Positions 30,649 to 50,260 of a stretch of 64,000 nucleotides of DNA are shown in pieces. Under the pieces are notes generated by a model. The model made no database searches and was not told the origin of the DNA. It was given only the letters and a program-made list of their open reading frames with translations. Source of the stretch: Candidatus Bathyarchaeota archaeon. GTDB taxonomy: Archaea; Thermoproteota; Bathyarchaeia; 40CM-2-53-6; RBG-13-38-9. The stretch's first letter is position 1. Every line of letters starts with the position of its first letter. The stretch is from positions 173 through 64,172 of the forward strand of contig JAGTRD010000003.1 of assembly GCA_018396915.1 (NCBI GenBank), in the 5' to 3' direction. A program made the position numbers and the translations under genes.

Positions 30649-31296
30649 GTGGCTGAGTTAAACTGCCAACATTGTGGCTACAAGTGGAATTATGGCGGAG
30701 CCAACCTATACTATGCTACCTGCCCCCGATGTCGGTATAAAGTCAAGATCCCTAAAGAGAAAACCCGAATGAGAGGACGAGGAATGTCAAGTCTACAATT
30801 AGAGAGGGTGAAAGCGCATGAGAGGAGACCTATCAGACTCCAAGGAGTAGCTGCCATCGTAAATAGAATAGTTGAAGAATACGGATATGACAAGAGCATG
30901 CTCATACAGGTTCTGTTGAGGCTGCAAAAGAGTTTCAGCTGGCTTCCGATGGAAATGTTATTAGAAGTCAGTAAACAACTAAAAGTTCCTTTAAGTCAAG
31001 TATATCAGATCGCAACTTTCTACAAGGCATTCTCCCTCACACCCAGAGGGAGACATCTGGTAAGGGTATGTATGGGCACAGCATGCAAAGTTAGAGGTGC
31101 AACGAACATTCTTGAAAAAATTCAGAGAGTCCTCAAGATAGAAAGAGACGAAACAACACCAGATGGAAGATTCACCCTAGAAACAATAAACTGCGCAGGA
31201 TGCTGCGCATTAGGTCCAGTAATAACAGTCGACGGCGAATATCATGGAAATGTGAAGACCCATAATGTGGAGAAGATCCTGGAACAGTATAGGTAA
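30649..31296 (+). CDS. NuoE/HoxE/HydC-like thioredoxin-fold [2Fe-2S] protein with N-terminal zinc ribbon
   Basis: 215 aa, GTG start. N-terminal CQHC...CPRC. NuoE-type cluster ligands CMGTACKVRGA and CAGCCALGPV. Confidence 0.85.
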   Translation: MAELNCQHCGYKWNYGGANLYYATCPRCRYKVKIPKEKTRMRGRGMSSLQLERVKAHERRPIRLQGVAAIVNRIVEEYGYDKSMLIQVLLRLQKSFSWLPMEMLLEVSKQLKVPLSQVYQIATFYKAFSLTPRGRHLVRVCMGTACKVRGATNILEKIQRVLKIERDETTPDGRFTLETINCAGCCALGPVITVDGEYHGNVKTHNVEKILEQYR

Positions 31297-31306
31297 GGAA
31301 GAAGGT

Positions 31307-33235
31307 ATGGAAGAAATCAAAAGGATAGATTCACCTGAAGATCTAGAGAAACTTCGGCGAAAATTGAGATCGAAGAAGAAAACAGATAAAACTACAATCT
31401 CAGTATGTGTCAGCACCGGATGCGTCGCCCTCGGATCAATAAAAGTACTGGAAGCCATCAAAGCTGAGTTGGAGAGGCAAGGCTTAGTTGAGACTGTAAA
31501 TGTCAAGGAGACAGGATGCCTAGGATTCTGCGAGCAAGGTCCAAGACTTAGCATACATCCAAAAGAGATCTGTTACTTTAAGGTCAAACCTGAAGATGCC
31601 CAAGAGATAGTGTCTAAGACAGTTATTAAAGGTGAAGTTGTTGAGAGACTGCTCTACAAGGATCCAGCAACGGGTAAAGTAGCGAGGAGACTCGACGAGA
31701 TACCATTCTACAGGCATCAAGTTAGACCCCTCCTGGCGAATAATGAGAGAATAGATCCGAAGAGTATCAATGATTATATTGCCCTCGGAGGATACGAAGC
31801 CTTGGCCAAAGCACTCTTCAAAATGACCCCTGAAGATGTTATTGAGGAAATTAAGAGGGCGAACCTGAGGGGGCGAGGTGGAGGGGGATTCCCAACAGGA
31901 ATAAAATGGGAGACTACGCGAAAAGCACCTGGGCATCTTAAATATGTGATCGTCAACTGCGATGAGGGAGATCCAGGAGCATTCATGGATAGATCATTGA
32001 TGGAGGGCAACCCACATAGTGTTCTTGAAGGCCTTATAATAGGAGGCTACGCAATAGGTGCCGGTGAAGGCTTCGTCTACGTCAGAGAAGAATACCCTCT
32101 CGCCGCTGAGAATATAACAAACGCAATAAGGCAAGCCGAAGAGTATGGGCTTTTAGGTGAGAATATTTTAGGGTCAGGCTTCAACTTCAAGGTTAGGGTT
32201 CATAGGGGTGCCGGGGCCTTCGTCTCAGGGGAGTCCAGCGCCCTCATGAACGCTATAGAAGGATGCATCGGCGAGCCGAGACCAAAATATGTCCATACGG
32301 CGGTCAAAGGAGTTTGGGGCAGACCCAGTTGCTTGAATAATGTTAAGACATGGGCGAATATTCCACTCATAATACTAAACGGAGCCGAATGGTTCAGAAA
32401 GATAGGTACAGAAGGCAGCAGTGGAACCGCTATCTTCTCACTGGTGGGAAAAGTCAACAATACAGGTTTGGTTGAGGTGCCTATGGGGATAACCCTTCGA
32501 GACCTCATCTACAAGATAGGTGGTGGAATAAAGGATGGAAAGAAATTCAAGGCCGTCCAGACAGGTGGGCCTTCAGGGGGCTTCATTCCAGAGCAGTATC
32601 TCAACCTCCCAGTAGACTTTGATGAGCTTAACAGAGTCGGTTCAATGATGGGTTCGGGAGGCATGGTTGTTATGGATGAAGATACCTGCATGGTAGACGC
32701 CGCCAGATTCTTCATCGACTTCCTACTTGAAGAGTCATGTGGGAAATGCATTCCATGCCGTGAGGGATTAAGAGTATTATCGAGAATCCTCAACGATATA
32801 TGTGAAGGCAAGGGTGTTGAAGAAGACGTAATGATTGTTGAAGAGATCGCTGAAACCATGCGCGATGCATCCCTATGCGCACTAGGAACAACGGCAGCGA
32901 ACCCTGTACTCACATCCTTAAAATATTTCAGGGATGAATGGGATCAACATCTGAAGGCTAAACGTTGCCCAGCCAAAGCTTGTAAGGCGCTGGTAAACTA
33001 TTACATTGAACCTGAGAAGTGTCAAGCCTGCCAATTATGCAGGAGAGAGTGTCCAACAGGGGCCATTCTAGGTGGGGTCGAGCAGGTTCACTGGATCGAA
33101 CAGGATAAATGTGTGAAGTGCGGCTCATGCTATGAGGCCTGTAGGTTCAATGCAATAGTGAAACTCTCCGGTGAGCCTATCCCTCCACCGCCACCTGAAG
33201 GTACTAAACCAGTTCGGAGAAGAGGTGGTCGATGA
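31307..33235 (+). CDS. NuoF/HoxF/HydB-like NAD(P)H-binding FMN iron-sulfur flavoprotein
   Basis: N-terminal 2Fe-2S domain (CVSTGC...GCLGFCEQGP), GRGGGGFPTGIKW, ESCGKCIPCREG, and two C-terminal ferredoxin motifs (CQACQLCRRECP, CVKCGSCYEACR). ATG 31307 preferred. Confidence 0.9.
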   Translation: MEEIKRIDSPEDLEKLRRKLRSKKKTDKTTISVCVSTGCVALGSIKVLEAIKAELERQGLVETVNVKETGCLGFCEQGPRLSIHPKEICYFKVKPEDAQEIVSKTVIKGEVVERLLYKDPATGKVARRLDEIPFYRHQVRPLLANNERIDPKSINDYIALGGYEALAKALFKMTPEDVIEEIKRANLRGRGGGGFPTGIKWETTRKAPGHLKYVIVNCDEGDPGAFMDRSLMEGNPHSVLEGLIIGGYAIGAGEGFVYVREEYPLAAENITNAIRQAEEYGLLGENILGSGFNFKVRVHRGAGAFVSGESSALMNAIEGCIGEPRPKYVHTAVKGVWGRPSCLNNVKTWANIPLIILNGAEWFRKIGTEGSSGTAIFSLVGKVNNTGLVEVPMGITLRDLIYKIGGGIKDGKKFKAVQTGGPSGGFIPEQYLNLPVDFDELNRVGSMMGSGGMVVMDEDTCMVDAARFFIDFLLEESCGKCIPCREGLRVLSRILNDICEGKGVEEDVMIVEEIAETMRDASLCALGTTAANPVLTSLKYFRDEWDQHLKAKRCPAKACKALVNYYIEPEKCQACQLCRRECPTGAILGGVEQVHWIEQDKCVKCGSCYEACRFNAIVKLSGEPIPPPPPEGTKPVRRRGGR

Positions 33236-33852
33236 TGGGTCTAAAACTAAAGATAGATGATAAGGAGGTTGAGTCGATGGAAGGCGAGACTATCTTGGAC
33301 GCCGCAAAAAAACTCGGTATTGAGATCCCTACACTCTGCCACCATGAAGGCTTGGAACCCTACGGTGCATGCAGAATATGCAGTGTAGAGATTGAGAAGA
33401 ACGGAAGAAAGAGAATAGTCGCCGCATGTTGTTACCCAGCTGAAGATGGCTTGAACGTAAAGACCAGGAGCCCCAGAATAGACAGAATTAGAAGAATCAT
33501 AATTGAGTTGGCCGCTATAAATGTTGGAGGAGACCTCTCCGGAAAGTTTTTGGAACTAGCAGCAGAATATAAGGCTGACACATCTAGGTTCCTTCAAAAA
33601 GTTAAGGTTGAACCGTCAAAATGCATCCTCTGCGGGCTCTGCGTACGCAGATGTGTCGAAGCCTGCTGGGACAGCGTCATAGGATTTGTTGGAAGAGGTG
33701 TAAACAGGCGAATAGTCGTGTATCCTGAGAATGCATCCATCTGTTCAACATGCGATCACTGTCACGGGATCTGCCCAACAGGAAGGATAACATCCATAGG
33801 ACCAGACCCACCGTTCCCATCAATCGACGACGTACTCGCTGGAAGGGAGTAA
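33232..33852 (+). CDS. NuoG N-terminal/HoxU-like [2Fe-2S]+[4Fe-4S] protein (no catalytic domain)
   Basis: 206 aa. Motifs: CHHEGLEPYGACRICSVE, CILCGLCVRRC, CSTCDHCHGICP. ATGA-type overlap with the upstream gene. Confidence 0.8.
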   Translation: MMGLKLKIDDKEVESMEGETILDAAKKLGIEIPTLCHHEGLEPYGACRICSVEIEKNGRKRIVAACCYPAEDGLNVKTRSPRIDRIRRIIIELAAINVGGDLSGKFLELAAEYKADTSRFLQKVKVEPSKCILCGLCVRRCVEACWDSVIGFVGRGVNRRIVVYPENASICSTCDHCHGICPTGRITSIGPDPPFPSIDDVLAGRE

Positions 33853-34506: not shown

Positions 34507-34941
34507 CTATGTAACTGTGACAGCAACCAACCGGCTCTGCTTAACACCCCTTTTATTCATTATCTCCTCGGACAATTTCCTAACCGTCTTTGCGTCGCCC
34601 CTAACCGATACGATCTCCAAGCAATTTCTATCATCGAGATGTACATGTGTGGTTGAGGTTATTACCCTCTGATATTTATGTTGGACATCCGTCAGAACCT
34701 CCTCTAAACCCTTGACTTCATGGTCATATATTGTAACCAAGCCGCCAGCGACTTCTCCTGAGACTTGGTGTGTCCACTTGTAATCGTCCAAGAAGATGCG
34801 CATAGCAGCCTGGATGGCTTTAGACCTATCATATCCGATCCTCTTTATTGTGGAGTCAAACTCCTCAACTAATCTCGGTGGAGCTGAGATGCTGAATCTA
34901 CAAACACCATTTGAACCCAAAACCATTACCCCCCAAATCAA
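34507..34941 (-). CDS. nikR: second NikR-like ribbon-helix-helix regulator
   Basis: RHH segment RFSISAPPRLVEEFDSTIKRIGYDRSKAIQAAMRIFL. C-domain with IYDHEV...HKY...TTHVHLDDRNCLEIV. Confidence 0.75.
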   Translation of the reverse strand: MIWGVMVLGSNGVCRFSISAPPRLVEEFDSTIKRIGYDRSKAIQAAMRIFLDDYKWTHQVSGEVAGGLVTIYDHEVKGLEEVLTDVQHKYQRVITSTTHVHLDDRNCLEIVSVRGDAKTVRKLSEEIMNKRGVKQSRLVAVTVT

Positions 34942-35011: not shown

Positions 35012-35833
35012 TTGTTTCTGATGGGTTCAGCAAGTTCAAAGATCCTTATTGTGCCAAACCTCAAAACCTCCTCCGTAAAAGCCTCCAGAGTCATCCAATC
35101 TGAGGAATATGTTGAGAAGATATTCCTGCCTGAACCTGAACGTCTTGAACCATACATAAAAACATATGGTAAGGAAAGAATCTCCTATGAAGATTTCGTC
35201 GGCAGAGTTAGAGATTCACGGCTGATTCCTGAGCCTCTTGGAAGTTGGCTATACACTTTTGAACCGATCCTTATGGGGATCTCTCAGCTTCTCAGACGGA
35301 ATAAGGCGCTAGAGATAATCTGCTACAAGGATGCAGAGGACCTTGAGAGGGCTTCAAGGTTCTCATCTGAAATCGCCCTCCTAACATATAGGAGCAACGT
35401 ATCAGGCAGGATAAATATTGACGATTGGATTTATACAATCTCAGAGTATATGGTCAGTAGTGAAGATATGTTGTTGAGGGAGGCGCAACGCATCATCGCC
35501 ATGGCTGGTGATTCAGGCAACATAGTTCTATCAGGCCTTGGAGGTAAAGAACTGAAACGGCTGTTAAGCGGATCCTTGAATATTCAACTTGAATGTGTAG
35601 AGAAATTCTACCATTTCACGCCGATAGAGATTTTGCAGACTGTAGTCGTAAGAGGGGATATTGATAGATGTTATATTGAGAGTTTGGTCAGATGTCACCT
35701 TGAGTATGTCAACCGTTACGTCCTCAGGAGCTGGAACCGGGATGTGGCTTATTACCGTTGGGTCTATGACAAGATACCGAGGCTTAGGAGTTGCCTATGT
35801 GAATTCGAAATTGAAGAGTTGAAGGTTCTCTAG
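35012..35833 (+). CDS. hypothetical soluble protein
   Basis: 273-aa ORF. No motif or TM segment recognised. Confidence 0.5.
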   Translation: MFLMGSASSKILIVPNLKTSSVKASRVIQSEEYVEKIFLPEPERLEPYIKTYGKERISYEDFVGRVRDSRLIPEPLGSWLYTFEPILMGISQLLRRNKALEIICYKDAEDLERASRFSSEIALLTYRSNVSGRINIDDWIYTISEYMVSSEDMLLREAQRIIAMAGDSGNIVLSGLGGKELKRLLSGSLNIQLECVEKFYHFTPIEILQTVVVRGDIDRCYIESLVRCHLEYVNRYVLRSWNRDVAYYRWVYDKIPRLRSCLCEFEIEELKVL

Positions 35834-35882: not shown

Positions 35883-36221
35883 CTATTCCAGAATCATCTC
35901 TTTGCGGTCGAATCCGAAATTCTCAAACTGTTGGGTGAGACCTATGGCCTTCGTTGGACATACATCCTCACATTGCTGGCAGTGTGTGCAACGGTCAAGA
36001 TAGAATCTGGGCCTCTTCCCCTTCTCATCCTCAAACATCTCCACAGTCTCTGAGGGACATACTCTGAAGCACATTCCGCATCCTATACATAGCTGCCTGT
36101 TAAATGTGAGTCTCCCCCTCAAACCTTCAGGGACATGAACCTTCTCCCTATCCTTGAACGGATAGAGCACAGTAGCTCTTCTACTCACTAAGTTCCTCAG
36201 AAGTTCAACCGCCAAAGACAT
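35883..36221 (-). CDS. NuoI/MbhN-like 2x[4Fe-4S] ferredoxin subunit
   Basis: Motifs CIGCGMCFRVCP and CTHCQQCEDVCP. I prefer ATG 36221 (MSLAVELLRNL...), which avoids a 49-nt overlap with the large subunit. Confidence 0.85.
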   Translation of the reverse strand: MSLAVELLRNLVSRRATVLYPFKDREKVHVPEGLRGRLTFNRQLCIGCGMCFRVCPSETVEMFEDEKGKRPRFYLDRCTHCQQCEDVCPTKAIGLTQQFENFGFDRKEMILE

Positions 36222-36232
36222 CTCAAGCCACC

Positions 36233-37423
36233 TCACAATTTCCTCGTATATTTCTTGAGTTGCTCCATCGTCCAGACCCAACTCCTACCCTTCGAAGGCT
36301 CTATGAACCTCAGCATCCTGTCCATGCAGCACATGCAAGGATCTATGCCGGCCAGCAGCACAGGAATGTCGGCGACATTGACCTCATACTTCCCTCTTGT
36401 AGTCATGCTCTGGAGTAAGGGCGCAAGGTTTCCGAGGGTCGGCGCGCGAACCTTATACCTAGCAGGCTTGTCTGTCCCATTAGATCTAACATAATGGATG
36501 TCTTCACCTCTGGGAGCCTCAACCTTACTCACCGCTTCCCCTACAGGCGGGGTGTTCGGCAGCCTCACCCTCACCGGTCCAGAAGGCATATGGTCAAGAC
36601 AGTATCTTACCATCTCAATGGACTCCAAGGTCTCATCGACCCTAACCATTATCCTAGCATAGAAGTCGCATGTATCGTAGCTTATTACGTTGAACGGGAC
36701 CTCGTCATGGGCTGCATATGGATCGTCTTTCCTAACATCCTCCTTTATAGCTGAGGCCCTGCGCATAGGTCCTACAGCACATAATTGGATAGCCTCCTCA
36801 GGGGTCAATATACCTATGCCCTTCGACCTGGCGCTTATAGTCGGATCTACGGGAACTGTTCTCTTGTAGTATCTTGTTCGCTCCTCCAAAACATCCATGC
36901 CTTTCCTGATTCTATATTCAACTTGAGGTGTGAGGTCTCTTCTAGTTCCACCTATTGTTGTGAAGGACATAGATACCCTATTTCCCGTGAGGGCTTCAAT
37001 AAGATCAAGCACAAGTTCCCGGTCACGCCAGACATACATGAAGAGTGTGTCGAAGCCAACCTCATGCCCCACCACTCCAAGCCAGAGCAGGTGGCTATGT
37101 ATCCTGTTCAACTCCTCTATTAGAACCCTCAGATATTCAGCCCTTCTTGGTGGAGGTTTCTCATATAGGTACTCTATGTTTTGGGTGTAACAGACCGTGT
37201 GGGCTGTATTGCATATTCCACATATCCTCTCCACCAGTGGAATGTTCTGCAGATATGTTTTCGACTCCATAAGTTTCTCTATTCCTTTGTGGGCATATCC
37301 TATTCTGGCCTCCACTTTGACAATGTTCTCTCCCTCCACATAGAATGTGAAGTTTTCAGGCTCCTTGAGTGCTGGATGTTGGGGACCTACTGGGACCTTA
37401 AATAGTGTGGTCGACAATTTCAC
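36233..37423 (-). CDS. group-4-type [NiFe]-hydrogenase large subunit (NuoD/MbhL/EchE-like) with intact Ni ligands
   Basis: 396 aa. N-terminal RICGICNTAH and C-terminal DPCMCCMDR, followed by a 27-residue tail. Confidence 0.9.
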   Translation of the reverse strand: MKLSTTLFKVPVGPQHPALKEPENFTFYVEGENIVKVEARIGYAHKGIEKLMESKTYLQNIPLVERICGICNTAHTVCYTQNIEYLYEKPPPRRAEYLRVLIEELNRIHSHLLWLGVVGHEVGFDTLFMYVWRDRELVLDLIEALTGNRVSMSFTTIGGTRRDLTPQVEYRIRKGMDVLEERTRYYKRTVPVDPTISARSKGIGILTPEEAIQLCAVGPMRRASAIKEDVRKDDPYAAHDEVPFNVISYDTCDFYARIMVRVDETLESIEMVRYCLDHMPSGPVRVRLPNTPPVGEAVSKVEAPRGEDIHYVRSNGTDKPARYKVRAPTLGNLAPLLQSMTTRGKYEVNVADIPVLLAGIDPCMCCMDRMLRFIEPSKGRSWVWTMEQLKKYTRKL

Positions 37424-37896
37424 TCAACCTCCCTTGGTCCCTTCAACCTAGTGACTTTATACTCTTTCCTTAAGGGGTAGACTCCGGCAGGCCAGTCCTC
37501 AGGAAGGATTAAACGTTCGAGGTTCGGGTGGCCTTCAAAGACTATTCCAAAAAGGTCGAATACTTCACGTTCATAGAAAGTGGCTCCTGGAACTATGTCT
37601 GTGAGGGTTGGTATTTTTGGGTCTTCCTTTGGGACTGTTGCCTTCAAAGTAACTTCAACACCCCTACCGAAGAGGTATGCCATAACATCCATCTCCTTCC
37701 CAGAATCAGCCGCAGTTATCGTCGATACATGATTTATGTTCATGTTTTGGATCAAGTGTTTCGCTGCTTGTTTGTAGGCTTCCCTACTGACCTTCAGGAA
37801 GAGCCTTCTCGGTCTTGGAATCTTCACCTCCAAGAGATTCTCCCCCAGAAGACTCTTCACCTCACTTGCAATATACTCCTCATTGCTTGTTGACAT
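37420..37896 (-). CDS. NuoC/MbhK-like hydrogenase subunit
   Basis: 158 aa. NuoC-family core (FYEREVFDLFGIVFEGHP); 4-nt overlap with the large subunit. Confidence 0.85.
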   Translation of the reverse strand: MSTSNEEYIASEVKSLLGENLLEVKIPRPRRLFLKVSREAYKQAAKHLIQNMNINHVSTITAADSGKEMDVMAYLFGRGVEVTLKATVPKEDPKIPTLTDIVPGATFYEREVFDLFGIVFEGHPNLERLILPEDWPAGVYPLRKEYKVTRLKGPREVE

Positions 37897-37902
37897 ATCC
37901 GA

Positions 37903-38337
37903 TCACCCCGACTTTATCTTCGCCTGTAAGGCGGCTACCGCTCCCAAGATCGCCTCAGGCTTAGGTGGACAACCGTAAACATATGCACTCACAGGAATAA
38001 CCGAGTCTAGTCCTGGATAGACATTGTAGCATCCCCTGTATACTCCGCCACTGTTGCAGCAGTTTCCGACGGAGAGGACGAACTTAGGCTCAGGCATCTG
38101 CTCATATATCCTGATGATGCGGTCTCTGATCTGTCTGTTTACTGGGCCCGTCACAACCAAGATATCTCCGTGTCTTGGACTCCCCTTCAACAGGACACCG
38201 AACCTTTCAACATCGAATCTTGGGTCGAGGGCCGCTAGAACCTCTATATCGCATGCGTTGCATCCGCCTGTGTTGAAGTGTACTATCCATGGGCTTTGGG
38301 CTCTACTCCAACTCACCAAACCCAACCTGAACCACAA
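37903..38337 (-). CDS. NuoB/MbhJ-like [NiFe]-hydrogenase small subunit
   Basis: 144 aa. Cluster ligands TGGCNACDIE, GNCCNSGG, VYGCPPKPEA. Confidence 0.9.
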   Translation of the reverse strand: MWFRLGLVSWSRAQSPWIVHFNTGGCNACDIEVLAALDPRFDVERFGVLLKGSPRHGDILVVTGPVNRQIRDRIIRIYEQMPEPKFVLSVGNCCNSGGVYRGCYNVYPGLDSVIPVSAYVYGCPPKPEAILGAVAALQAKIKSG

Positions 38338-38395
38338 CCCTTTAGATTTACTTCAGGTATTCTAGGATGCTTTTAAATTCTTGTATCCTAGGTTA

Positions 38396-39325
38396 CTATG
38401 TTACATGCTCCCCAGCCAGACTCAGTATCCTCTTATACTCGTCCTCAACCTCCCTCTTTATCGCCTCAAGCTCATCTTTAAACTCGGGCTTCAGAAGGTG
38501 GCTAAATCTTCCTTGAAGTTTCAGGTATTCTTCTAGGGGTATGAGTCTACCTGGCTTCAGGCTCAACTTATATTTTCCATCTATGATCTCATATATCGGG
38601 AAGAGGCCTGTCTGAACCGCCATCTTTGCCAATTTTATAGTGTCGGAGGGGTTGGAGCGCCAACCCAGTGGGCAAGGCGCTAGAACATGTACTACGGCAG
38701 GTCCATCAACCTCTATAGCCCTCCTGACCTTGTCTATGTAGTCGCCGAAGAACCCTATTGAGGCTGTTGCGACATAGCTTATTCCATGGGCTGCACATAT
38801 ACCTGCTAGATCCTTCTTCTTACCACGTTTTCCAGGAATGACCTTGCCGGCTGGACTGGTAGTTGTTGCTGCTCCTCTGGGGGTTGCACCTGAACGTTGT
38901 ATCCCAGTATTCATGTATGCTTCATTATCATAACATATGTACACTACATCGTGGCCCCTCTCCAACATTCCTGAGAGGGCCTGTATCCCTATGTCGAAGG
39001 TTCCACCGTCTCCACCGAGGGCTATAATGTCAACCTTCCCTTTAAGTTGGCCACGCCTCTCCAAAGCTTCATAAGCATATTCTAACCCTCCTGCTACAGC
39101 TCCAATATTCTCGAATAGTGTGTGGACCCAAGGGATCCTCCAAGCAGTATATGGATATATTGTGGTTGAGACTTCAACACAGCCTGTGGCGTTGACGACG
39201 ACTGTGGGTCCTCTAGATGCCTTCAGAGCCATCCTGACCGATATAGATGGACCGCATCCCGCACAGAGTCTATGTCCTGGAGCGTAAGGCTCTTCCTTCG
39301 GAAGATCTTTCAGGGCGACCATCAT
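38396..39325 (-). CDS. porB: 2-oxoacid (pyruvate-type):ferredoxin oxidoreductase beta subunit
   Basis: 309 aa. Motifs: RLCAGCGPSI and the TPP motif ALGGDGGTFDIG. Substrate not provable by eye. Confidence 0.9.
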   Translation of the reverse strand: MMVALKDLPKEEPYAPGHRLCAGCGPSISVRMALKASRGPTVVVNATGCVEVSTTIYPYTAWRIPWVHTLFENIGAVAGGLEYAYEALERRGQLKGKVDIIALGGDGGTFDIGIQALSGMLERGHDVVYICYDNEAYMNTGIQRSGATPRGAATTTSPAGKVIPGKRGKKKDLAGICAAHGISYVATASIGFFGDYIDKVRRAIEVDGPAVVHVLAPCPLGWRSNPSDTIKLAKMAVQTGLFPIYEIIDGKYKLSLKPGRLIPLEEYLKLQGRFSHLLKPEFKDELEAIKREVEDEYKRILSLAGEHVT

Positions 39326-40590
39326 TCCCTCACATCCAGAAACCTGATCCTCTCCTTAACCCTTCCAGTCTTCGCTGTTCTCAAAGCTTCATCGAATACT
39401 TCTCTTACTGTTGATGGTGGAGTATCCCTCCCTCCTAAGCCATATATCATATTCATGACCTTGATGTCCATCCCAGTATTCTGGAGGGCTGATGAAACAT
39501 CGCTGCATAAAGCACCGTAAGGGGCTCCGAAACTTATAGCCCTATCCATAACTGCTAAGGCCTTCAAGTCTTTGATAGTCGATAGAAACTCTTCTGTGGG
39601 GAAAGGTCTATACGTCCAGAGTTTAATCAAACCAACCTTCTTACCTTTGGCCCTGAGGTCTTTAGCTACTGAACGGACTGTTCCACATGTGCTACCCAAA
39701 CACATTATAGCCGCATCTGCATCTTCGAGTCCGAAAGTCTCCATAAAACCGTATCTCCTACCTGTGAACTTACCATACTCATCCCCAACCATCTTAACCA
39801 CACCTTTAGACTTTTGGATAGCCTCCTCCTGTTGACGTTTAACCTCATAATAATATTCAGGCAGAGCCATCGCACCTACAGTTATCGGTGTCTCAGGATC
39901 GACTTTAAATATTGGTTTCCTCGGCGGTAGAAACTTATCAACATCCTCATCTGAGAGAACCTTCATACTCTCTGTTGCATGTGAGACTGTGAATCCATCT
40001 AGGTTCACTGTCACAGGGAGTTGGACAGTCTCCTCCTCAGCTATCTTGAATGCTTGAACTATTAGATCGTAGGTTTCTTGGGCGTTCTCTGCATAGAGCT
40101 GTATCCAACCGCAGTCTCTTGAGCCCATCATGTCGCTGTGATCTCCGTGTATATTGATCGGTGCTGATAGAGCCCTGTTGACTACAGCCATTACAATTGG
40201 GCATCTGAGGCCTGACGCGAGGTATAGAACCTCATGCATCAATGCCAAGCCCTGGCTGGCTGTTGCTGTGAAAACCCTTGCGCCGGCCAGGCTTGCGCCT
40301 ACACAAGCGGACATCGCAGAATGTTCAGACTCTGCGTATAGATACTTTGTATCAACCTCCCCGTCGGCGACATAGTCGCTGAACCTCTCAACTATTATCG
40401 TTTGGGGTGTTATAGGATAAGCCGCTACTACGTCGACCCTGCACTGTTTAGCGGCGTAGGCTGCAGCTTCATCGCCTGTATATGCTCCAGGTATCTGGCT
40501 GGATGCCTTGATCTTTCCAATATGTTTGGTGGCCTCGCCCAAATATGAAACTACACCATCGGTCTTACAGACTCCCTTTCTACGCGACAA
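39322..40590 (-). CDS. porA: 2-oxoacid:ferredoxin oxidoreductase alpha subunit
   Basis: 422 aa. AAYPITPQT motif; overlaps its neighbours. Confidence 0.9.
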   Translation of the reverse strand: MSRRKGVCKTDGVVSYLGEATKHIGKIKASSQIPGAYTGDEAAAYAAKQCRVDVVAAYPITPQTIIVERFSDYVADGEVDTKYLYAESEHSAMSACVGASLAGARVFTATASQGLALMHEVLYLASGLRCPIVMAVVNRALSAPINIHGDHSDMMGSRDCGWIQLYAENAQETYDLIVQAFKIAEEETVQLPVTVNLDGFTVSHATESMKVLSDEDVDKFLPPRKPIFKVDPETPITVGAMALPEYYYEVKRQQEEAIQKSKGVVKMVGDEYGKFTGRRYGFMETFGLEDADAAIMCLGSTCGTVRSVAKDLRAKGKKVGLIKLWTYRPFPTEEFLSTIKDLKALAVMDRAISFGAPYGALCSDVSSALQNTGMDIKVMNMIYGLGGRDTPPSTVREVFDEALRTAKTGRVKERIRFLDVRE

Positions 40591-40918
40591 CCCTCGACTC
40601 CTCCACCATCTCTATTGCTTTTACAGGACATTCTGCTGAACATATTCCGCAACCTTTACAGTGGTAATAGTCAACCTCAATTGTCTCCTCATATTTTCCA
40701 TATGGTTTCTGCAGCCTGTTGATTGAGACGTCTGGGCAGATTATCCAGCATATCAAGCATCTGATACATTTATCCTGGTTGATGATGGGTTTCTTCTCTA
40801 TCCTCCAGTCGCCTGTCCTATACTCGGCTGAGGAGCCGGGCTCAAAGATGATTCCTGCAATAGGAGTCTTCCTCCAACTCAGCTTCATCCTCTCCGCCAA
40901 ACTCTCTCTCCTATTCAT
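40580..40918 (-). CDS. porD: 2-oxoacid:ferredoxin oxidoreductase delta subunit (2x[4Fe-4S])
   Basis: 112 aa. Motifs CIRCLICWIICPD and CKGCGICSAECP. Confidence 0.9.
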   Translation of the reverse strand: MNRRESLAERMKLSWRKTPIAGIIFEPGSSAEYRTGDWRIEKKPIINQDKCIRCLICWIICPDVSINRLQKPYGKYEETIEVDYYHCKGCGICSAECPVKAIEMVEESRVVA

Positions 40919-41484
40919 CCTCTAACAACCTCCTGGCTTCCACTCTCAAGAAGTACCAAGTTCTTTTCTAAAATATCTCCTTTGAATCTTGACTTCATAG
41001 CATCCCTAACAGCATTCATAGAGACTATTCCTGTGGCTTTAGCCAGCGCACCCAGCATCACTGTGTTTATTCCCCTTGCGCTGCCAAGAGTCTTTATAGA
41101 GATCTCTGTGGCGTCGACCGAGTAGCATGATGGGCCCTTGAGGCCTAACTCTTCAAGAACCGTTCTTGGATGTTTCTTAGTATTCATTATGATCTTGCCG
41201 TCTTTCTTCAATCCCTCACTCACATCGATGAAGGAGGGCAGAGTTGGGTCTAGAATTATGACCGCGTCAGGATTGTATATCTTACTTCTCACCTCTATAG
41301 GCTTATCAGAGATTCTTGTGAATCCGGACATCGGGGCGCCTATTCTTTCAGGTCCAAACTCTGGAAAAGCCTGGATATGTTTCCCCTCCATCATAGCAGC
41401 TATTCCTAAAAGACGGCTGACCGTTATCACACCTTGTCCAGCCCTTCCATGCCACCTAACCTCATACATCAAACTTACCACCAT
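40915..41484 (-). CDS. porG: 2-oxoacid:ferredoxin oxidoreductase gamma subunit
   Basis: 189 aa. Motif RWHGRAGQGVITVSRLLG. Confidence 0.9.
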   Translation of the reverse strand: MVVSLMYEVRWHGRAGQGVITVSRLLGIAAMMEGKHIQAFPEFGPERIGAPMSGFTRISDKPIEVRSKIYNPDAVIILDPTLPSFIDVSEGLKKDGKIIMNTKKHPRTVLEELGLKGPSCYSVDATEISIKTLGSARGINTVMLGALAKATGIVSMNAVRDAMKSRFKGDILEKNLVLLESGSQEVVRG

Positions 41485-41669: not shown

Positions 41670-41831
41670 CTAATCTACGGGTTCGAACTGGTCTTTGGGA
41701 GCGCCACATAATGGACACACCCATGTCTCAGGCAACTCTTCGAAGGATATTCCTGGCTCAACGCCTCCTTCAGGATCTCCGACTAGGGGATCATAAACGT
41801 AGCCACATACACTACATCTGTATTTCTTCAA
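41670..41831 (-). CDS. rubredoxin (53 aa, TTG start), not in ORF track
   Basis: My codon-by-codon reverse translation: (TTG)[53 protein letters not shown]. It has the canonical CxxCG...CPxCG rubredoxin signature. Confidence 0.8.
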
Positions 41832-41954
41832 TGACAACTTCAACTCTCCATCAGATGAACATCATAATGTTATTGGTCTGCTAATTAAGTATTGACATTT
41901 CTATAATTATTGATTTCACAGTCTAATGAATGATTTTTAGATCATGTCGGAAGA

Positions 41955-43133
41955 TCAGCCTAATACTCTTTTTATGCGTTCCATGGCCTCCCTTATATTT
42001 TCCTTAGAGTTGGCGAAAGAGAATCGGAGGTTACCTTCACCTGACTCACCGAACGCTACCCCAGGGATTATTGCAACCTTAGCCTTCCTAAGAATCATCT
42101 GAGCAAGATCCATCGACGATAAGCCTACTCTCTTTATGTTTGGAAATGCATAGAAAGCACCTCTCGGAGTATTACATTTGAAACCGCTTATCTGGTTCAG
42201 ACCCAATATGATCAGATCTCTCCTCTCCTTGAACTCGTCAACCATCTTCCTCACACATTCTTGTGGGCCCTTCAAAGCAGCTACAGCTGCCTTCTGCGCT
42301 ATTGAGTTTGGACACCACACTGCATGTTCACTTATCATCCGGATCTTATCGATCAAGTTGCTGTCACCTGCCACATATCCTACACGCCATCCTGTCATCG
42401 CATATGTTTTCGATAGAGAATTGATTGTCAACGTTCTATCATCCATTCCCTCGATACTTGCGAAGCTGATGTGTTCAGACCCGTCGTAAATGAATTTCTC
42501 ATAGACTTCATCTGAGAGGACCAGGAGGTTGTTGTTTTCAGCGAGATCCGCGATTTCCTTCATATCTTTCAATTTCAATATTGAGCCTGTTGGGTTTTGT
42601 GGTGAGTTTATCAGGATCAACTTTGTTCTGCTTGTAATTTTTCTCTTGAGATCATCGAGATCAGGTCTGAAATCTTCATCCTCAATCAATCTGATAGGGA
42701 CCGGTATGCCGCCTGCCATGCTTATATCTCCCCAGTACTGGGGTAGGCAAGGTTCAGGGACGATAACCTCATCCCCTGGGTCGACTAAGGCTTGGAATGC
42801 GCAGAACAATGCGTTATAACCTCCTGAGAGAACAGCGACTTCCCTGCGTGGGTCTACGTCAATCTTATTATCTCGACGGAGCTTCTCTGATATGGCTTCT
42901 CTAAGTTCGAGTATTCCCCCTGGAGGGGTGTAATGTGTATAACCATCATCCATTGCCTTCGAGGCGGCTTCCACTATATGTGGTGGTGTAGGAAGGTCAG
43001 GCTCTCCGACGTGTAAATGTATAATGTCCTCACCTGAACGCTCCATTTCAACAGCCTCAGCGAAGAATTCTGCGAAGGCGGATTGTCTGAGTCTCCTCGA
43101 CCTCTCAGAGAGATGCTTATTCACATCAACCAT
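41955..43133 (-). CDS. class I/II PLP-dependent aminotransferase (aspartate aminotransferase-like)
   Basis: 392 aa. PLP-lysine context SLSKTYAMTGWRVGY. Confidence 0.9.
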   Translation of the reverse strand: MVDVNKHLSERSRRLRQSAFAEFFAEAVEMERSGEDIIHLHVGEPDLPTPPHIVEAASKAMDDGYTHYTPPGGILELREAISEKLRRDNKIDVDPRREVAVLSGGYNALFCAFQALVDPGDEVIVPEPCLPQYWGDISMAGGIPVPIRLIEDEDFRPDLDDLKRKITSRTKLILINSPQNPTGSILKLKDMKEIADLAENNNLLVLSDEVYEKFIYDGSEHISFASIEGMDDRTLTINSLSKTYAMTGWRVGYVAGDSNLIDKIRMISEHAVWCPNSIAQKAAVAALKGPQECVRKMVDEFKERRDLIILGLNQISGFKCNTPRGAFYAFPNIKRVGLSSMDLAQMILRKAKVAIIPGVAFGESGEGNLRFSFANSKENIREAMERIKRVLG

Positions 43134-43259
43134 GCCGGTTGGAATCCCCCTCTAAATCGAAGATCTTCATGGCATTCAGACTGATTGCTCTGGTTCATTC
43201 AATTGGGGAAACTATATAAGGAGTGTTGTAATTCAGTCTGGTCTTAAAGGTGTTTGGTT

Positions 43260-43463
43260 ATGCCAAAGGTTACAGTTGACTTCTCCAAATGTAACGGCGA
43301 TGGGACATGTGTAAGTGTTTGTCCAGTCGGTGTCTTTGAGATTCAGAATAAGCCCGACTTCAACAATGAGCCCAAAGCCGTTCCGGTAAACAGTGATGCC
43401 TGCATAGTCTGCCGTTCATGTGAAACTCAGTGTCCAACACAGGCTATTGTTGTGGAGGAATAG
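43260..43463 (+). CDS. 2x[4Fe-4S] ferredoxin
   Basis: Motifs CNGDGTCVSVCP and CIVCRSCETQCP. ATG 43260. Confidence 0.85.
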   Translation: MPKVTVDFSKCNGDGTCVSVCPVGVFEIQNKPDFNNEPKAVPVNSDACIVCRSCETQCPTQAIVVEE

Positions 43464-44163
43464 AGGGGCCTAGGCTCTGCATGGCATCACCACATTTTTT
43501 TATCAAGTAAACTATTCGACTTATAGCATCAATCTCATCTTTCGTGAATTCTCTTAAGTTTCTGTCAAGTGGAGGTAGAGCTCTCAGATATTTATAGATA
43601 AGGTCGAGGTTTCTATTAAGATCTTGATCGAAAGTCACTTTCAGGTGCTCCATTCTACCACGAAGTATCTCAGCAGCATCTTTATAGCCTAGAGAGTCAA
43701 ACACAGCCATTTTCAGAATGTTTCTCTGCAAGATCCATGAAAGGAGATTGTCGTCGACCTCTTCATGAACATGCTCAGGGTGATGATCACTATTAATGAG
43801 TTTCAACCTCATCGATGAGAAGCTCTCTGGAAATCTATCCTCCAATATTATGTCCGCGTAATAGTCTTCATGTAAGGTTTTCAGAACTTGACTTGTCATA
43901 CTAATATTCAAGTTCGGCTCAGCCTCGAATACGGGAAGGCCCATAAGGTACAGTTTAAGGTGGCACAACTCATGTTTGAGGGCATCTACGCTTAAGCTTC
44001 CCCTATACTCTATAATATACTCGAGTCTGGAGTTCTCACTCTGCCTGAAATATATAATATTCGAATGTAAGGGGGTTCTCTTACTCCTGATGAGTTTGAC
44101 CTCTATTGTCTTAGGGATCCCTAGGATCTCAATCGTACTCTTCAGGTCTCCTGGAAACTTCAT
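43444..44163 (-). CDS. hypothetical protein with HExxH motif
   Basis: 239 aa. A single HELCH at ~residue 64. No family recognised. Confidence 0.5.
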   Translation of the reverse strand: MKFPGDLKSTIEILGIPKTIEVKLIRSKRTPLHSNIIYFRQSENSRLEYIIEYRGSLSVDALKHELCHLKLYLMGLPVFEAEPNLNISMTSQVLKTLHEDYYADIILEDRFPESFSSMRLKLINSDHHPEHVHEEVDDNLLSWILQRNILKMAVFDSLGYKDAAEILRGRMEHLKVTFDQDLNRNLDLIYKYLRALPPLDRNLREFTKDEIDAISRIVYLIKKCGDAMQSLGPSIPPQQ

Positions 44164-47047: not shown

Positions 47048-48835
47048 TTGCGATTGTTCAAGGAGGGTAAGATACAGAGGGTTGCAGGGCCTGTCGTGAT
47101 CGGAAAGAACATGTCTGGGGCTCTGATGTATGAGCTTGTCAAGGTCGGTGAGGCTGAGCTCATCGGAGAAATAATTAGGGTTGAGGGGGAGACTGCAACT
47201 ATCCAAGTATATGAGGAGACCACAGGGATAAGGCCTGGGGAGAAGATTCTAAGGACTGGTAAACCTCTCTCTGTCGAGTTAGGCCCAGGCATACTGGGAC
47301 AGATATATGATGGGATACAGAGACCCCTACCGAAGATCATGGATCTTACAGGTGACTTCATTGAGAGGGGGGTCACAGTGCCATCCCTTGACCGGAATAG
47401 AGAATGGAGATTCATTCCAGTCCAGAGGGATGGTTCTAATGTTCAGTCTGGAGATGTCTTGGGAACTGTTGAAGAGACAAGTCTGATAAAACATAAGATT
47501 CTGGTTCCGCCAAATATTTCAGGAACTGTTGAAAACATGGTCTCTGAAGGCGATTATAAGGTTGAGGACCAAATATGTATAATATCTGGTCCAGCAGGGA
47601 AGGTTCCAGCCAGACTCATGCATACCTGGCCTGTAAGGTCTCCTAGACCTTTCAAGAGGAAGGTTCCATCAGACACACCTCTGGTGACAGGCCAGAGGAT
47701 AATAGATTTCCTCTTTCCAATAGCGAAGGGTGGAACAGCAGCTATCCCAGGTGGTTTCGGAACTGGAAAGACTGTGATGCAGCAGCAACTTGCGCAGTGG
47801 GCTGACGCTGACATAATAGTCTATGTCGGTTGCGGTGAGAGGGGGAATGAGATGGCTGAGGTTCTTGAGAGGTTCCCTAAACTTAAAGATCCTAGATCGG
47901 GGAAGCCTCTGATGGATCGAACTGTTCTCTTCGCAAATACCTCAAACATGCCCATTGCAGCTAGGGAGGCTAGTGTATATACTGGCATAACGGTAAGCGA
48001 ATATTTCAGGGATATGGGCTACGATGTTGCCTTGATGGCTGACTCAACATCTAGATGGGCTGAGGCTTTGAGGGAGATATCTGGCCGTCTGGAGGAGATG
48101 CCTGGTGAGGAGGGTTACCCAGCATACTTGGCATCAAGGCTCGCAGAGTTCTATGAGAGGTCGGGGAGGGTTGAGGTATCAGGAACCAGAACAGACCTAG
48201 GATCTGTATCGGTCGTGGGCGCAGTCTCACCTCCAGGAGCAGACTTCTCTGAGCCTGTGACCCAGAACACACTCAGAATAGTAAAGGTTTTCTGGGCTTT
48301 GGATAAGGCTCTGGCTGAGAGGAGACACTTCCCAGCGATAAGCTGGTTGACGAGCTACTCTCTATACTTTGACAGTTTAGAGGAATGGTATAGGAGGGAG
48401 TTCGGGGAGGAATGGGTTGAATACCGTCGGGAAGCGATGCAGATACTCCAGAGAGATGAAGAGTTGAGGGAGATAGTGATGCTCGTCGGTCCGGACGCCC
48501 TCTCTGAAGCTCAGAGGGTAACTTTGGAGGTTGCTAGAATGTTGAAGGAAGACTTTCTAATGCAGAATGCAAGTCACCCAATAGACAGCTACTGTCCAGT
48601 AAATAAGACCTTCCACATGATCAAGATCATAATGAGTTTCTACCATAGAACAGTTAAGGCTGTTGAAGCAGGCATATCTCTACAGAGGATTCTTGAGCTT
48701 CCAGTGAAGGAGGAAATTTCCAGAATGAAGATAAAGCCCCCTGAAGAATTCGACACCTATGCAGATGAGCTGCTGAGAAGGATCGATGAAGAGTTTAACC
48801 AGTTAACTCCCCACATCCTTGCAAGGGCTAGGTGA
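47048..48835 (+). CDS. atpA: A-type (A1AO) ATP synthase catalytic subunit A
   Basis: 595 aa, TTG start. Walker A GGFGTGKTV. The length argues against an intein. Confidence 0.95.
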   Translation: MRLFKEGKIQRVAGPVVIGKNMSGALMYELVKVGEAELIGEIIRVEGETATIQVYEETTGIRPGEKILRTGKPLSVELGPGILGQIYDGIQRPLPKIMDLTGDFIERGVTVPSLDRNREWRFIPVQRDGSNVQSGDVLGTVEETSLIKHKILVPPNISGTVENMVSEGDYKVEDQICIISGPAGKVPARLMHTWPVRSPRPFKRKVPSDTPLVTGQRIIDFLFPIAKGGTAAIPGGFGTGKTVMQQQLAQWADADIIVYVGCGERGNEMAEVLERFPKLKDPRSGKPLMDRTVLFANTSNMPIAAREASVYTGITVSEYFRDMGYDVALMADSTSRWAEALREISGRLEEMPGEEGYPAYLASRLAEFYERSGRVEVSGTRTDLGSVSVVGAVSPPGADFSEPVTQNTLRIVKVFWALDKALAERRHFPAISWLTSYSLYFDSLEEWYRREFGEEWVEYRREAMQILQRDEELREIVMLVGPDALSEAQRVTLEVARMLKEDFLMQNASHPIDSYCPVNKTFHMIKIIMSFYHRTVKAVEAGISLQRILELPVKEEISRMKIKPPEEFDTYADELLRRIDEEFNQLTPHILARAR

Positions 48836-48841
48836 AAGGCT

Positions 48842-50245
48842 ATGTCGATGATGAGGAGTATTGAGAGGGAGTACTGTACAGTCAGCAGAATATCTGGTCC
48901 GCTGCTGTTCGTGAGGGCGGTGAGTGGGGTTGGGTATGGAGAGATAGTTAGGATAACGACCCCAAGCGGTGAGGAGAGGAGAGGCCAGGTCCTCGAAGTC
49001 GGTGAAGATATGGCGGTGGTTCAAGTATTTGAGGGGACATCAGGTCTAGATGTCCCATCGACGAGAGTATCATTCAGCGGAGAGACGATTAAGCTCCCCG
49101 TATCCTCAGATATGTTGGGTAGGATCTTCGACGGAAGCGGGAAACCCATAGACGGTGGGCCGAAAATTATTCCAGAGGATTACCTTGACGTTCACGGATC
49201 CCCGATCAACCCTTATTCAAGGGAGTATCCGAGAGACTTTATTCAGACAGGAATCTCTACAATAGACGGAATGAATACCCTGGTCAGGGGGCAGAAGCTG
49301 CCGCTATTCTCAGGTTCAGGCCTACCACACAACACAATAGTGGCACAGATTGCGAGGCAGGCTAAGGTCAGGGGGACCGAGGAGCCTTTCACAACAGTTT
49401 TCGCCGCCATGGGTATAACAGCGGATGAGGCTAGATTCTTCATGGAAGATTTCGAGAGGCAAGGGGCATTCGAACATGTGACCCTATTCATAAATTTGGC
49501 TGACGACCCGGCGATAGAGAGGATTCTAACCCCTAGGATAGCCCTGACAGCAGCTGAGTTCTTCGCCCATAGGTTAGGCATGCATGTACTAGTTATTCTG
49601 ACGGATATGACAAACTACTGTGAGGCTCTGAGGGAGATATCTGCAGCTAGGGAGGAGGTTCCTGGAAGGAGAGGGTACCCAGGCTACATGTATACAGACC
49701 TGGCTACAATATATGAGAGGGCTGGTCGAACACATGGAAGTAAAGGTTCCGTCACCCAGATGCCTATCCTGACTATGCCTCATGACGATATGACCCATCC
49801 CATACCTGACCTTACCGGCTACATAACCGAGGGGCAGATAATAGTGGATAGGGGCCTATACCGTAAAGGCGTATACCCACCGATAGATGTCTCACCATCC
49901 CTGTCGAGGCTGATGAAGGAGGGCATAGGTAAGGGTAGGACCAGGGAAGACCACAGGGAGGTTTCAGACCAGCTGTATTATGCTTACGCTGAGGGTAGGG
50001 GGTTCAGGGATCTAGTAGCTGTGGTTGGTGAGGAAGCCCTATCCGCTAGGGACAAGCTCTATCTGAAGTTTGCAGACGAATTCGAGAGGAGATTCGTCAA
50101 TCAGGGTGTCTATGAGGATAGGGATATTGATGAGACCCTTGATCTGGGATGGGAACTATTGACGATGCTTCCTGAAGGTGAGTTGAAGAGGATAGACCCC
50201 CAGACCATAAAGACGTACCATCCAAAATATAGAAGGCCAAGCTGA
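48842..50245 (+). CDS. atpB: A-type ATP synthase subunit B
   Basis: 467 aa. Non-catalytic P-loop remnant SGSGLPHN; follows atpA by 6 nt. Confidence 0.95.
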
Positions 50246-50260
50246 GTAAGGGTTCCTCGA

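Follow-up and report, generated by a model that had tools for sequence, protein, structure and literature searches.

We analysed an eight-gene string in a 64,000-nt stretch of DNA from Candidatus Bathyarchaeota archaeon (contig JAGTRD010000003.1, positions 173 to 64,172; the whole stretch is hereafter called the window). The string joins the genes of a predicted 2-oxoacid:ferredoxin oxidoreductase (POR) to those of the catalytic head of a group-4 [NiFe] hydrogenase. We favour, with moderate confidence, the reading that the head belongs to a membrane-bound, ion-translocating 2-oxoacid-to-H2 complex that is encoded at two loci. The direct evidence comes from the gene content and its motifs, from synteny that is conserved in relatives, from phylogeny, and from complementary sets of subunits within single metagenome-assembled genomes (MAGs).

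All eight genes are located on the minus strand in the order porG-porD-porA-porB and, after a gap, NuoB-, NuoC-, NuoD-, and NuoI-like genes (hfoB, hfoC, hfoD, and hfoI), according to the coordinates of the open reading frames (ORFs). Pfam and NCBIfam profile searches were in agreement for all eight assignments, as follows.
40915..41484, minus strand: porG/porC, gamma subunit of a four-subunit 2-oxoacid:ferredoxin oxidoreductase (PF01558, 1.2e-39; TIGR02175 PorC_KorC, 199 bits, cutoff 81)
40580..40918, minus strand: porD, delta subunit, 2x[4Fe-4S] (Fer4 dicluster; TIGR02179 PorD_KorD, 97.5 bits, cutoff 60)
39322..40590, minus strand: porA, alpha subunit (POR_N and PFOR_II, PF01855 and PF17147; best NCBIfam match PorA_Arch, 501 bits, cutoff 550)
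38396..39325, minus strand: porB, beta subunit, binding thiamine pyrophosphate (TPP) (TPP_enzyme_C, PF02775; NCBIfam PorB, 390 bits, cutoff 405)
38338..38395, no strand: porB-hfoB intergenic gap, 58 nt from the first TTG and approximately 70 nt from the TTG supported by alignment
37903..38337, minus strand: hfoB, NuoB/MbhJ-like small subunit (PF01058, Oxidored_q6, 6e-27; GGCNAC, VGNCC, and GCPP in the alignment)
37420..37896, minus strand: hfoC, NuoC/MbhK-like subunit (PF00329, Complex1_30kDa, 1.5e-32)
36233..37423, minus strand: hfoD, [NiFe] large subunit, 396 aa (PF00346 and PF00374, Complex1_49kDa and NiFeSe_Hases)
35883..36221, minus strand: hfoI, NuoI/MbhN-like 2x[4Fe-4S] subunit (Fer4 families, Fer4 dicluster; NuoI subfamily, 8e-23)

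Neighbouring genes overlap by 4 nt (porG/porD), 11 nt (porD/porA), 4 nt (porA/porB), and 4 nt (hfoC/hfoD), and hfoB and hfoC are spaced by 6 nt. An earlier note made from the sequence of the window had described eight same-strand genes with these overlaps and a 58-nt gap, and the ORF coordinates and profile matches bore this out. The hfoI ORF opens at 36281, and the Met codon at 36221 was favoured by the relatives, giving a product of 112 aa as in these relatives. About 35 N-terminal residues of the porA ORF precede the profile match.

All four subunits of POR (gamma, delta, alpha, and beta) are encoded in the window, and both TPP-binding and 2x[4Fe-4S] domains are present among them. The subfamily cutoffs of PorC_KorC and PorD_KorD were exceeded, those of PorA_Arch and PorB were narrowly missed, and the VOR models scored somewhat lower. 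The enzyme is predicted to be a 2-oxoacid:ferredoxin oxidoreductase of the POR/VOR family, and pyruvate specificity was not assigned from the scores, because the equivalog scores of PorA and PorB lay just below their cutoffs.

The large subunit HfoD contains both pairs of Ni-ligand cysteines, in the L1 motif RICGICNTAH and the L2 motif DPCMCCMDR, followed by a C-terminal tail of 27 residues. We compared these motifs with the pattern set out in Loh et al. 2021 (PMC7886697), in which L1 is C[GS][ILV]C[AGNS]xxH and L2 is [DE][PL]Cx[AGST]Cx[DE][RL]. The L1 motif matched the pattern; the L2 motif has both cysteines but carries Cys where the pattern gives A, G, S, or T, a deviation common to the whole clade of heads described below. 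The L2 motif of this clade is DPCMCC, with an extra Cys beside the Ni ligand (HfoD residues 361-369), and its L1 motif is RICGICN, whereas complete clusters carry DPCFSC and RICGICS/A.

Among the solved structures, the best matches of HfoD were MbhL (6cfw_L, 2e-76) and then HycE (7z0s_E, 1.3e-72), both with full-length alignments. NuoD chains aligned with HfoD only up to about residue 295, and the 27-aa tail aligned with the C-terminal extension of HycE. HfoB retains the four cysteines of the proximal [4Fe-4S] cluster (GGCNAC, NCC, and GCPP), and HfoI has two CxxCxxCxxxCP motifs in its 112 aa. The retained L1 and L2 motifs, the MbhL and HycE matches, and the aligned tail agree with the proposal in the earlier note that the large subunit looks like that of a live group-4 [NiFe] hydrogenase, which would require C-terminal processing, and not like a NuoD.

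No transmembrane segment was predicted in the eight products, as no 19-residue Kyte-Doolittle window reached 1.6. Pfam searches of the other ORFs of the window (110 aa or longer, shadow ORFs excluded) gave no match for NuoH, NuoL/M/N, Mrp, hyp, or HycI. Thus, three observations of the earlier note were upheld: no product is polytopic, including that of the ORF at 35012-35833; no NuoH-type gene lies between the large-subunit gene and the NuoI-like gene; and no hyp or maturation endopeptidase gene is present among ORFs of at least 110 aa in the window. The ORF at 35012-35833 (plus strand) encodes a 273-aa protein and sits between the head and the nikR gene. It was considered as a new anchor and rejected, since it has no transmembrane segment and no family match and occurs in the nearest relatives only.

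The closest proteins were found in MAGs of Bathyarchaeia and other Thermoproteota, many of them from hot springs. Loci from species-representative genomes and metagenomes were sorted by gene content into three kinds. The first kind, the por-B-C-D-I strings, recurs in at least four lineages with a large-subunit identity to the window of 82-96%: L110 (96%, syntenic across the whole neighbourhood), L009/L114 (88%), L007/L008/L010/L111/L113 (84-87%), and L005/L006/L112 (82-84%). No membrane gene was found in the string or within 7-10 kb of it at any of at least nine por-type loci. The second kind comprises B-D-I strings without NuoC, with an identity of 69-73% (L001-L004, L011, L012, L015, L115-L120, and L135). 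The third kind comprises complete nuoA-B-C-D-H-I-J-K-L-M-N clusters, in which a NuoH gene (PF00146) separates D from I and three genes are antiporter-like; their identity is 55-66% over the full length, and that of two partial loci is 67-69%.

In neighbour-joining trees, the heads without an H gene between D and I formed one clade (300/300 bootstraps), as did the por subclade within it (300/300), and the clade of heads was nested among complete A-B-C-D-H-I-J-K-L-M-N clusters of Bathyarchaeia. Such clusters encode the Fpo-like 11-subunit [NiFe] hydrogenase that Loh, Herve and Brune (2021, PMC7886697) described from Bathyarchaeia as Hfo, subgroup 4g-6; the family itself is already known. The head of the window is assigned to this family (Hfo, subgroup 4g) by its neighbour-joining placement among Bathyarchaeia clusters. 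The single clade and the conserved por synteny indicate that the gene order marks a real, conserved lineage. As the same string recurs in at least four distinct lineages with 82-96% identity, the por linkage is conserved in relatives and the por-BCDI arrangement is not due to chance.

Within the clade of heads, four loci (L265, L250, L325, and L326; heads 70% identical to that of the window) have the genes in the order I-D-C-B, divergent from an adjacent nuoA-H-J-J2-K operon. hycI follows nuoK directly in L325 and L326. Because the closest clade members adjoin a nuoA-H-J-J2-K operon, the heads of this clade are, on gene order, probably ancestrally docked to NuoH. These compact loci are located at L325 5974-11417, L326, L265 37-4961, and L250 3813-8001, and no antiporter-like (NuoL/M/N) gene was found within 9 kb in L325 and L326 or in the 2-4 kb seen beyond nuoK in L265 and L250. 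The compact L325-type system would combine a group-4 hydrogenase and a membrane anchor while having no evident module for pumping.

We searched for NuoH genes by several scans, two of which were not exhaustive. The scan with an alignment as the query covered the best 80 of 600 matches and missed known loci, so that it is of no use as a negative. The scan with a single NuoH protein responds only to exact 8-mers, chiefly EQEIVAGW and KLMAKEDI, and the majority of Bathyarchaeia NuoH would escape it; it gave the first membrane arms without a head, of the A-C-H-J-K type. Head-less arms have the order nuoA-nuoC-nuoH-nuoJ-K-L-M-N without B, D, and I (L150-152, L155, L157, L175, L246, and L274) or nuoA-nuoH-nuoJ-K... 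without B, C, D, and I (L281, L285, L289, L307, and L297).

One MAG, SRP098346_co1_347, carries both a por-BCDI string (L009, on the 66-kb contig CAYZRW010000011, 88% identity) and a nuoA-nuoH arm (L297, on the 67-kb contig CAYZRW010000009). It is the only por-type MAG with long contigs, and the G+C contents of the fetched L009 and L297 stretches are 0.501 and 0.502. The full arm without B, C, D, and I is seen on the metagenome contigs L312-L314, whose NuoH protein (P0121) is identical to that of L297. Its order is guaA, nuoA, nuoH, a 50-codon ORF, nuoJ, a second small membrane gene (J2), nuoK, three genes for antiporter-like subunits (620, 494, and 501 aa), and hycI (PF01750). The same head-less arm is present in a second lineage (NuoH 79% identical), with hycI co-oriented directly after nuoN. 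The maturation endopeptidase gene is thus found in a relative at the arm locus, although no hydrogenase subunit is encoded there in cis.

The subunits missing from the arm (B, C, D, and I) are exactly the four that the por string encodes. Two further MAGs pair a B-D-I head with an A-C-H-J-K-L-M-N arm: SRP104967_co1_100 (CAZSNM01; head L015, arm L157/L254) and HHBFW-2_201803_bins_83 (JAWBPF01; head L011, arm L274). Head and arm are complementary in both configurations, BCDI with AHJKLMN and BDI with ACHJKLMN. The earlier note had proposed a soluble or unconventionally anchored module and had named in advance NuoH and antiporter-like genes elsewhere in the genome as speaking against it; NuoH was found in SRP098346_co1_347, the best-assembled relative, and antiporter-like genes on the contigs with the identical NuoH protein, and the soluble reading is probably wrong.

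A convergent FrhB-like (F420-binding) gene is usual beside the B-D-I heads and is always present in L001-L004, L015, L115-L119, and L135 (e.g., L001 9548-12687). Other head-less arms (L281, L289, L307, and L278) have an FrhB-like gene divergent from nuoA. The loci with B-D-I and FrhB may represent a version of the split complex that is linked to F420.

The proteins closest to NuoH of the por-type arm (76-88% identical) are encoded in complete clusters with the same flanks, namely HMGL-like and guaA on one side and hycI, a nucleotidyl-transferase (NTP-transferase), and MoCF biosynthesis genes on the other. These flanks and identities indicate that the arm locus is, as judged from gene order, orthologous to the complete Hfo locus and has probably lost B, C, D, and I by deletion. 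The 50-codon ORF between nuoH and nuoJ (L312 10977-11129; also L313, L314, and L297) matches the first 15 or so residues and the C-terminal TDY-containing segment of NuoI and is devoid of the cluster-binding core; it is the scar of a deletion in the native nuoI.

In the complete clusters with this type of arm, the native large subunit is only 59% and the native NuoI only 34% identical to the protein of the window, and the native large subunit groups with L016 in a different clade. The por-linked head is thus not the native one moved to a new place; it is of another lineage and appears to have replaced the native head. Cas12f1-like/TnpB (IS200/IS605-type) genes are located approximately 2.3 kb upstream of the head-less arm (L297 3001-4044 and L312 6173-7216), and a fragment of such a gene lies at the edge of one por-type locus (L007 2-160). 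Mobile elements may have mediated the rearrangements.

In both head-less lineages, hycI and all eight genes of the membrane arm are intact. The nonsynonymous divergence per site (pN) was 0.10-0.25 (0.10-0.18 in seven of the eight genes; 0.25 in nuoJ2), against a saturated synonymous divergence (pS) of 0.71-0.91. NuoH of the head-less arms has kept its long conserved loop, PFDIPEAETEIVAGWQTEFSGRK, without change. Relative-rate and convergence tests of NuoH between head-less arms and complete clusters gave mixed signs. Intact genes under purifying selection point to an arm that is still in use.

We also compared the head with those of the complete clusters. The por-type heads retain 204 of the 226 positions (90%) that are at least 95% invariant in complete membrane-bound clusters, the lengths of their subunits are unchanged, and the N-terminal loop PALKEPENFTF of HfoD is identical. 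By these measures, the head shows no apparent relaxation relative to the complete clusters. Remodelling of the head at the membrane interface was considered and rejected, as group-specific switches numbered only 3 in B, 3 in C, 10 in D, and 1 in I, and there were no indels.

Several points weigh against a two-locus complex. The arm was not seen for the organism of the window itself, of which 64 kb are available and whose large subunit gave no exact match in a look-up. The NuoH motif scan gave no match in two of the three por-type species-representative MAGs, CAZRDQ01 and JAGTQO01, which are very fragmented (por-bearing contigs of 14.5 and 3.3 kb; in JAGTQO01, 98% identity over the 54 C-terminal residues recovered). 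Co-binning in a MAG is no proof that two contigs share one genome, and the pairing of head and arm across lineages, at identities of 59% for the head and 34% for NuoI, is assumed. The trees are neighbour-joining trees only. Furthermore, NuoH of L297 is nearer to that of a complete cluster (88%) than to that of the other head-less arm (79%), and head loss may be recent and repeated, which weakens the evidence from intactness and purifying selection for long-term use of the arm. The complex is a prediction from sequence.

Some of these points favour a soluble, non-energy-conserving 2-oxoacid:H+ oxidoreductase, in which POR would be wired to a membrane-free group-4 core and the arm of the relative would serve another purpose or head. 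This reading would account for the lack of a membrane gene in the string or near it at the por-type loci, for eight products without a transmembrane segment, for the two of three por-type MAGs without a detected NuoH, and for an arm whose original head came from another lineage. The coupling of pyruvate oxidation (approximately −500 mV) to H2 formation (−414 mV) needs no membrane to be exergonic, which also fits. Against it are the exact complementarity of subunits in two independent configurations, the nuoA-H-J-K operons adjoining the closest clade members, hycI at an arm without a hydrogenase subunit, a head without relaxation or remodelling relative to complete clusters, and intact arm genes under purifying selection. 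We therefore hold a soluble enzyme to be unlikely. It is similarly doubtful that the por-BCDI products work without the arm in any form, whether always or as a free sub-complex beside a membrane-docked one.

The neighbourhood of the string in the window bears on the direction of the reaction. The following genes were annotated.
34507..34941, minus strand: nikR, nickel-responsive regulator, conserved neighbour of the head (NF002169, 139 bits, cutoff 111)
41670..41843, minus strand: rubredoxin gene, directly upstream of porG (PF00301, 8e-24)
41955..43133, minus strand: class I/II aminotransferase gene, conserved upstream neighbour (PF00155, 1e-78)
43254..43463, plus strand: 69-aa 2x[4Fe-4S] ferredoxin gene, divergent from the aminotransferase gene (ORF and Cys motifs)
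4803-6917: ADP-forming acetyl-CoA synthetase (Pfam)
6930-8783: aldehyde:ferredoxin oxidoreductase (Pfam)
47048-50899: A-type ATP synthase subunits A, B, and D (Pfam)

In L005, L007, L110, and L029, NikR is likewise encoded close to the head; in L007, a metal transporter of the CbiMNQO type adjoins it. The rubredoxin gene lies upstream of porG in L110, L009/L114, and L007/L113 as well. Copies of the aminotransferase (70-94% identical) and of the ferredoxin (69-100% identical) are encoded at the same place in L110, L005, and L007, and an M20 peptidase gene lies near the por-type string in L005 and L007. The aminotransferase is a likely source of 2-oxoacids, and the ferredoxin is a candidate carrier between POR and the head. 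With a free ferredoxin gene conserved nearby, diffusible coupling appears as plausible as direct wiring from PorD to HfoI. No Wood-Ljungdahl gene was found in the Pfam annotation of the window, and its gene content is indicative of a fermentative setting.

In the favoured two-locus complex, POR would oxidise 2-oxoacids derived from the aminotransferase, or pyruvate. Electrons would reach the clusters of HfoI through the 69-aa ferredoxin or directly from PorD and would move on through the HfoB cluster to the [NiFe] site in HfoD, at which H2 would form. As in other members of the family, the head would be seated on the NuoH-type arm encoded in trans, and the redox step would drive ion translocation in that arm. 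The ion gradient could be used by the A-type ATP synthase of the window, with the ADP-forming acetyl-CoA synthetase supplying ATP at the substrate level alongside. The mature enzyme would be an 11-subunit membrane-bound complex, with B, C, D, and I from the por string and A, H, J, K, L, M, and N, together with HycI, from the distant locus. HycI would cut off the 27-residue tail after Ni insertion, and NikR would couple expression to nickel.

The same split membrane complex might also run anabolically, with gradient-driven H2 oxidation reducing ferredoxin and POR acting as a pyruvate synthase. Group-4 hydrogenases are reversible, and the anabolic oxidoreductases linked to Eha/Ehb in methanogens are a parallel to this direction. 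The best NCBIfam matches of PorA and PorB are models of the archaeal "pyruvate synthase", although the name has little weight with scores under the equivalog cutoffs. H2-dependent ferredoxin reduction has also been proposed as the role of Hfo (Loh et al. 2021, PMC7886697). Against this stand the ADP-forming acetyl-CoA synthetase and aldehyde:ferredoxin oxidoreductase genes, the lack of Wood-Ljungdahl genes in the window, and conserved neighbours that are catabolic (the aminotransferase, and the M20 peptidase in L005 and L007). Because of these neighbours, the anabolic direction is less likely, and we judge it quite improbable.

An anchor smaller than the L297-type arm, such as NuoA-H-J-K without antiporter-like subunits as in L265/L325, which would be a tether with little or no ion pumping, is very improbable: it fits the nearest clade members, which have nuoA-H-J-J2-K and then hycI with no antiporter-like gene within 9 kb and whose heads are 70% identical to that of the window, against 59% for the native L297-type head, but the only NuoH detected in a por-type MAG is of the A-H-J-K-L-M-N type, and the motif scan, by which L265 was found, would also match an L265-type NuoH.

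The gap between porB and hfoB was compared with that of relatives. The hfoB start is probably the TTG at 38325, as judged by the alignment with relatives. The gap is 58-83 nt in relatives whose small-subunit start is reliably placed; a value of 25 nt in L112 is an artefact of an over-long ORF call. The sequence of the gap is not conserved among the relatives. An A/T-rich, TATA-like run (TTTAAAA) is located approximately 40 nt upstream of the hfoB start in the window and in L110, and an internal promoter may lie in the gap. The por and hfo genes are probably co-transcribed. A perfect inverted repeat or hairpin, CCGTTATACATATAACGG, is located in the gap of one por-type lineage (L007, approximately 8585-8605; also L111 and L113) and is absent from the gap of the window.

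We compared the string with known systems. As in Hfo, the large subunit nests among A-B-C-D-H-I-J-K-L-M-N clusters, L1 and L2 are kept, and the lengths of B, C, D, and I are equal. Unlike Hfo, with its 11 subunits in one cluster of Fpo/Nuo order, the window has only B, C, D, and I, contiguous, without H between D and I, and behind a por operon; the other seven subunits are encoded at a second locus in SRP098346_co1_347. In this relative, A, H, J-N, and hycI come from a different Hfo lineage than the head.

Mbh of Pyrococcus furiosus is a ferredoxin-oxidising, H2-evolving respiratory enzyme fed by POR, a plausible parallel in physiology. The 14 mbh genes form a single operon that includes an Mrp-type Na+ module and has mbhM between L and N; por is unlinked to it in Pyrococcus. 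The head of the window shares with Mbh (group 4d, PDB 6CFW) the J-K-L-N core module, and MbhL is its best solved match; in contrast to Mbh, the window has no membrane genes in cis, and the arm of the relative is of the Nuo/Fpo type. Formate hydrogenlyase (FHL; E. coli FHL-1, PDB 7Z0S) and the CO-dehydrogenase/Coo hydrogenase likewise have a donor dehydrogenase with a 2x[4Fe-4S] subunit in the gene string of the hydrogenase. The donor in the window is a predicted TPP-dependent 2-oxoacid oxidoreductase and not a formate or CO dehydrogenase, and the membrane subunits of FHL, HycC and HycD, are encoded in the same operon. porGDAB lies directly upstream of the head on the same strand in at least four lineages. 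Physical attachment of POR to the head in a hydrogenlyase-type supercomplex is a candidate arrangement, and the free ferredoxin gene equally fits diffusible coupling.

Divergent topologies of fpo-like clusters, including clusters with missing subunits, have been mentioned briefly for hot-spring Bathyarchaeia (Qi et al. 2021, PMC8407382). The class of organism and the habitat are the same, and L029 is QZM_A2_bin_35, from a sample (QZM_A2) listed in that paper. The passages retrieved from it treat these clusters as Fpo-like and contain no por linkage, complementarity, nuoI scar, or hycI link. The archaeal hybrid [FeFe]/[NiFe] hydrogenases (Greening et al. 2024) were considered and set aside as unrelated, being built on group 3. 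The searched literature contained nothing relevant on a soluble group-4 hydrogenase or a por-linked 4g/Hfo cluster, and nothing on a por-linked head, complementarity in two configurations, a hycI-tagged head-less arm, a nuoI scar, or replacement of the head across lineages.

Respiratory complex I is accepted to descend from group-4 hydrogenases, which in the standard account arose when a soluble hydrogenase head was joined with an Mrp-like membrane arm. If the two-locus complex is real, living archaea still handle head and arm as separable cassettes. One clade of heads would then be found beside a minimal A-H-J-K anchor, split from an A-C-H-J-K-L-M-N arm, or split from a scarred A-H-J-K-L-M-N arm of another lineage. 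One lineage of heads would be tied to a 2-oxoacid oxidoreductase operon, as the 2-oxoacid analogue of the FHL and CO-dependent hydrogenase strings. Surveys that score energy-converting hydrogenases or Fpo-like complexes as complete or incomplete by single clusters would misread these organisms. If the head were soluble instead, it would be the first membrane-free member of the hydrogenase family related to complex I.

Other loci contain Hfo-like large-subunit genes that stand alone (L124 814-2001, L130 7001-8188, L025 10001-11200, L134, and L028 10001-10575). No small-subunit, NuoC, or NuoI gene adjoins them, and they are orphan paralogues of the catalytic subunit. The orphan in L124 is close to NikR and metal-transporter-like genes. 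Upstream of that in L028 are genes for a protein with motifs like those of the [NiFe] large subunit and for an Mrp/NBP35-like protein, as read from the sequences with no family search.

In the window, genes on the plus strand at 30649-33852 encode a NuoE-like protein, a 656-aa NuoF-like protein that has additional 2Fe-2S and 4Fe-4S domains, and a 2Fe-2S/4Fe-4S protein of 206 aa resembling the N-terminal part of NuoG, and no catalytic hydrogenase or dehydrogenase subunit adjoins them. These genes were rejected as part of the system, being conserved only in L110 and L029 and not in L005, L007, or L009. A 239-aa protein with no family match (43444-44163, minus strand) is encoded next to the ferredoxin gene and also adjoins it in L110, L005, and L007 (43-86% identity). 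A second NikR-type regulator (24211-24594, plus strand) is encoded beside a ZnuABC-type metal ABC transporter (21474-24110, minus strand). Thus, the window has two NikR paralogues, one of which adjoins the hydrogenase head.

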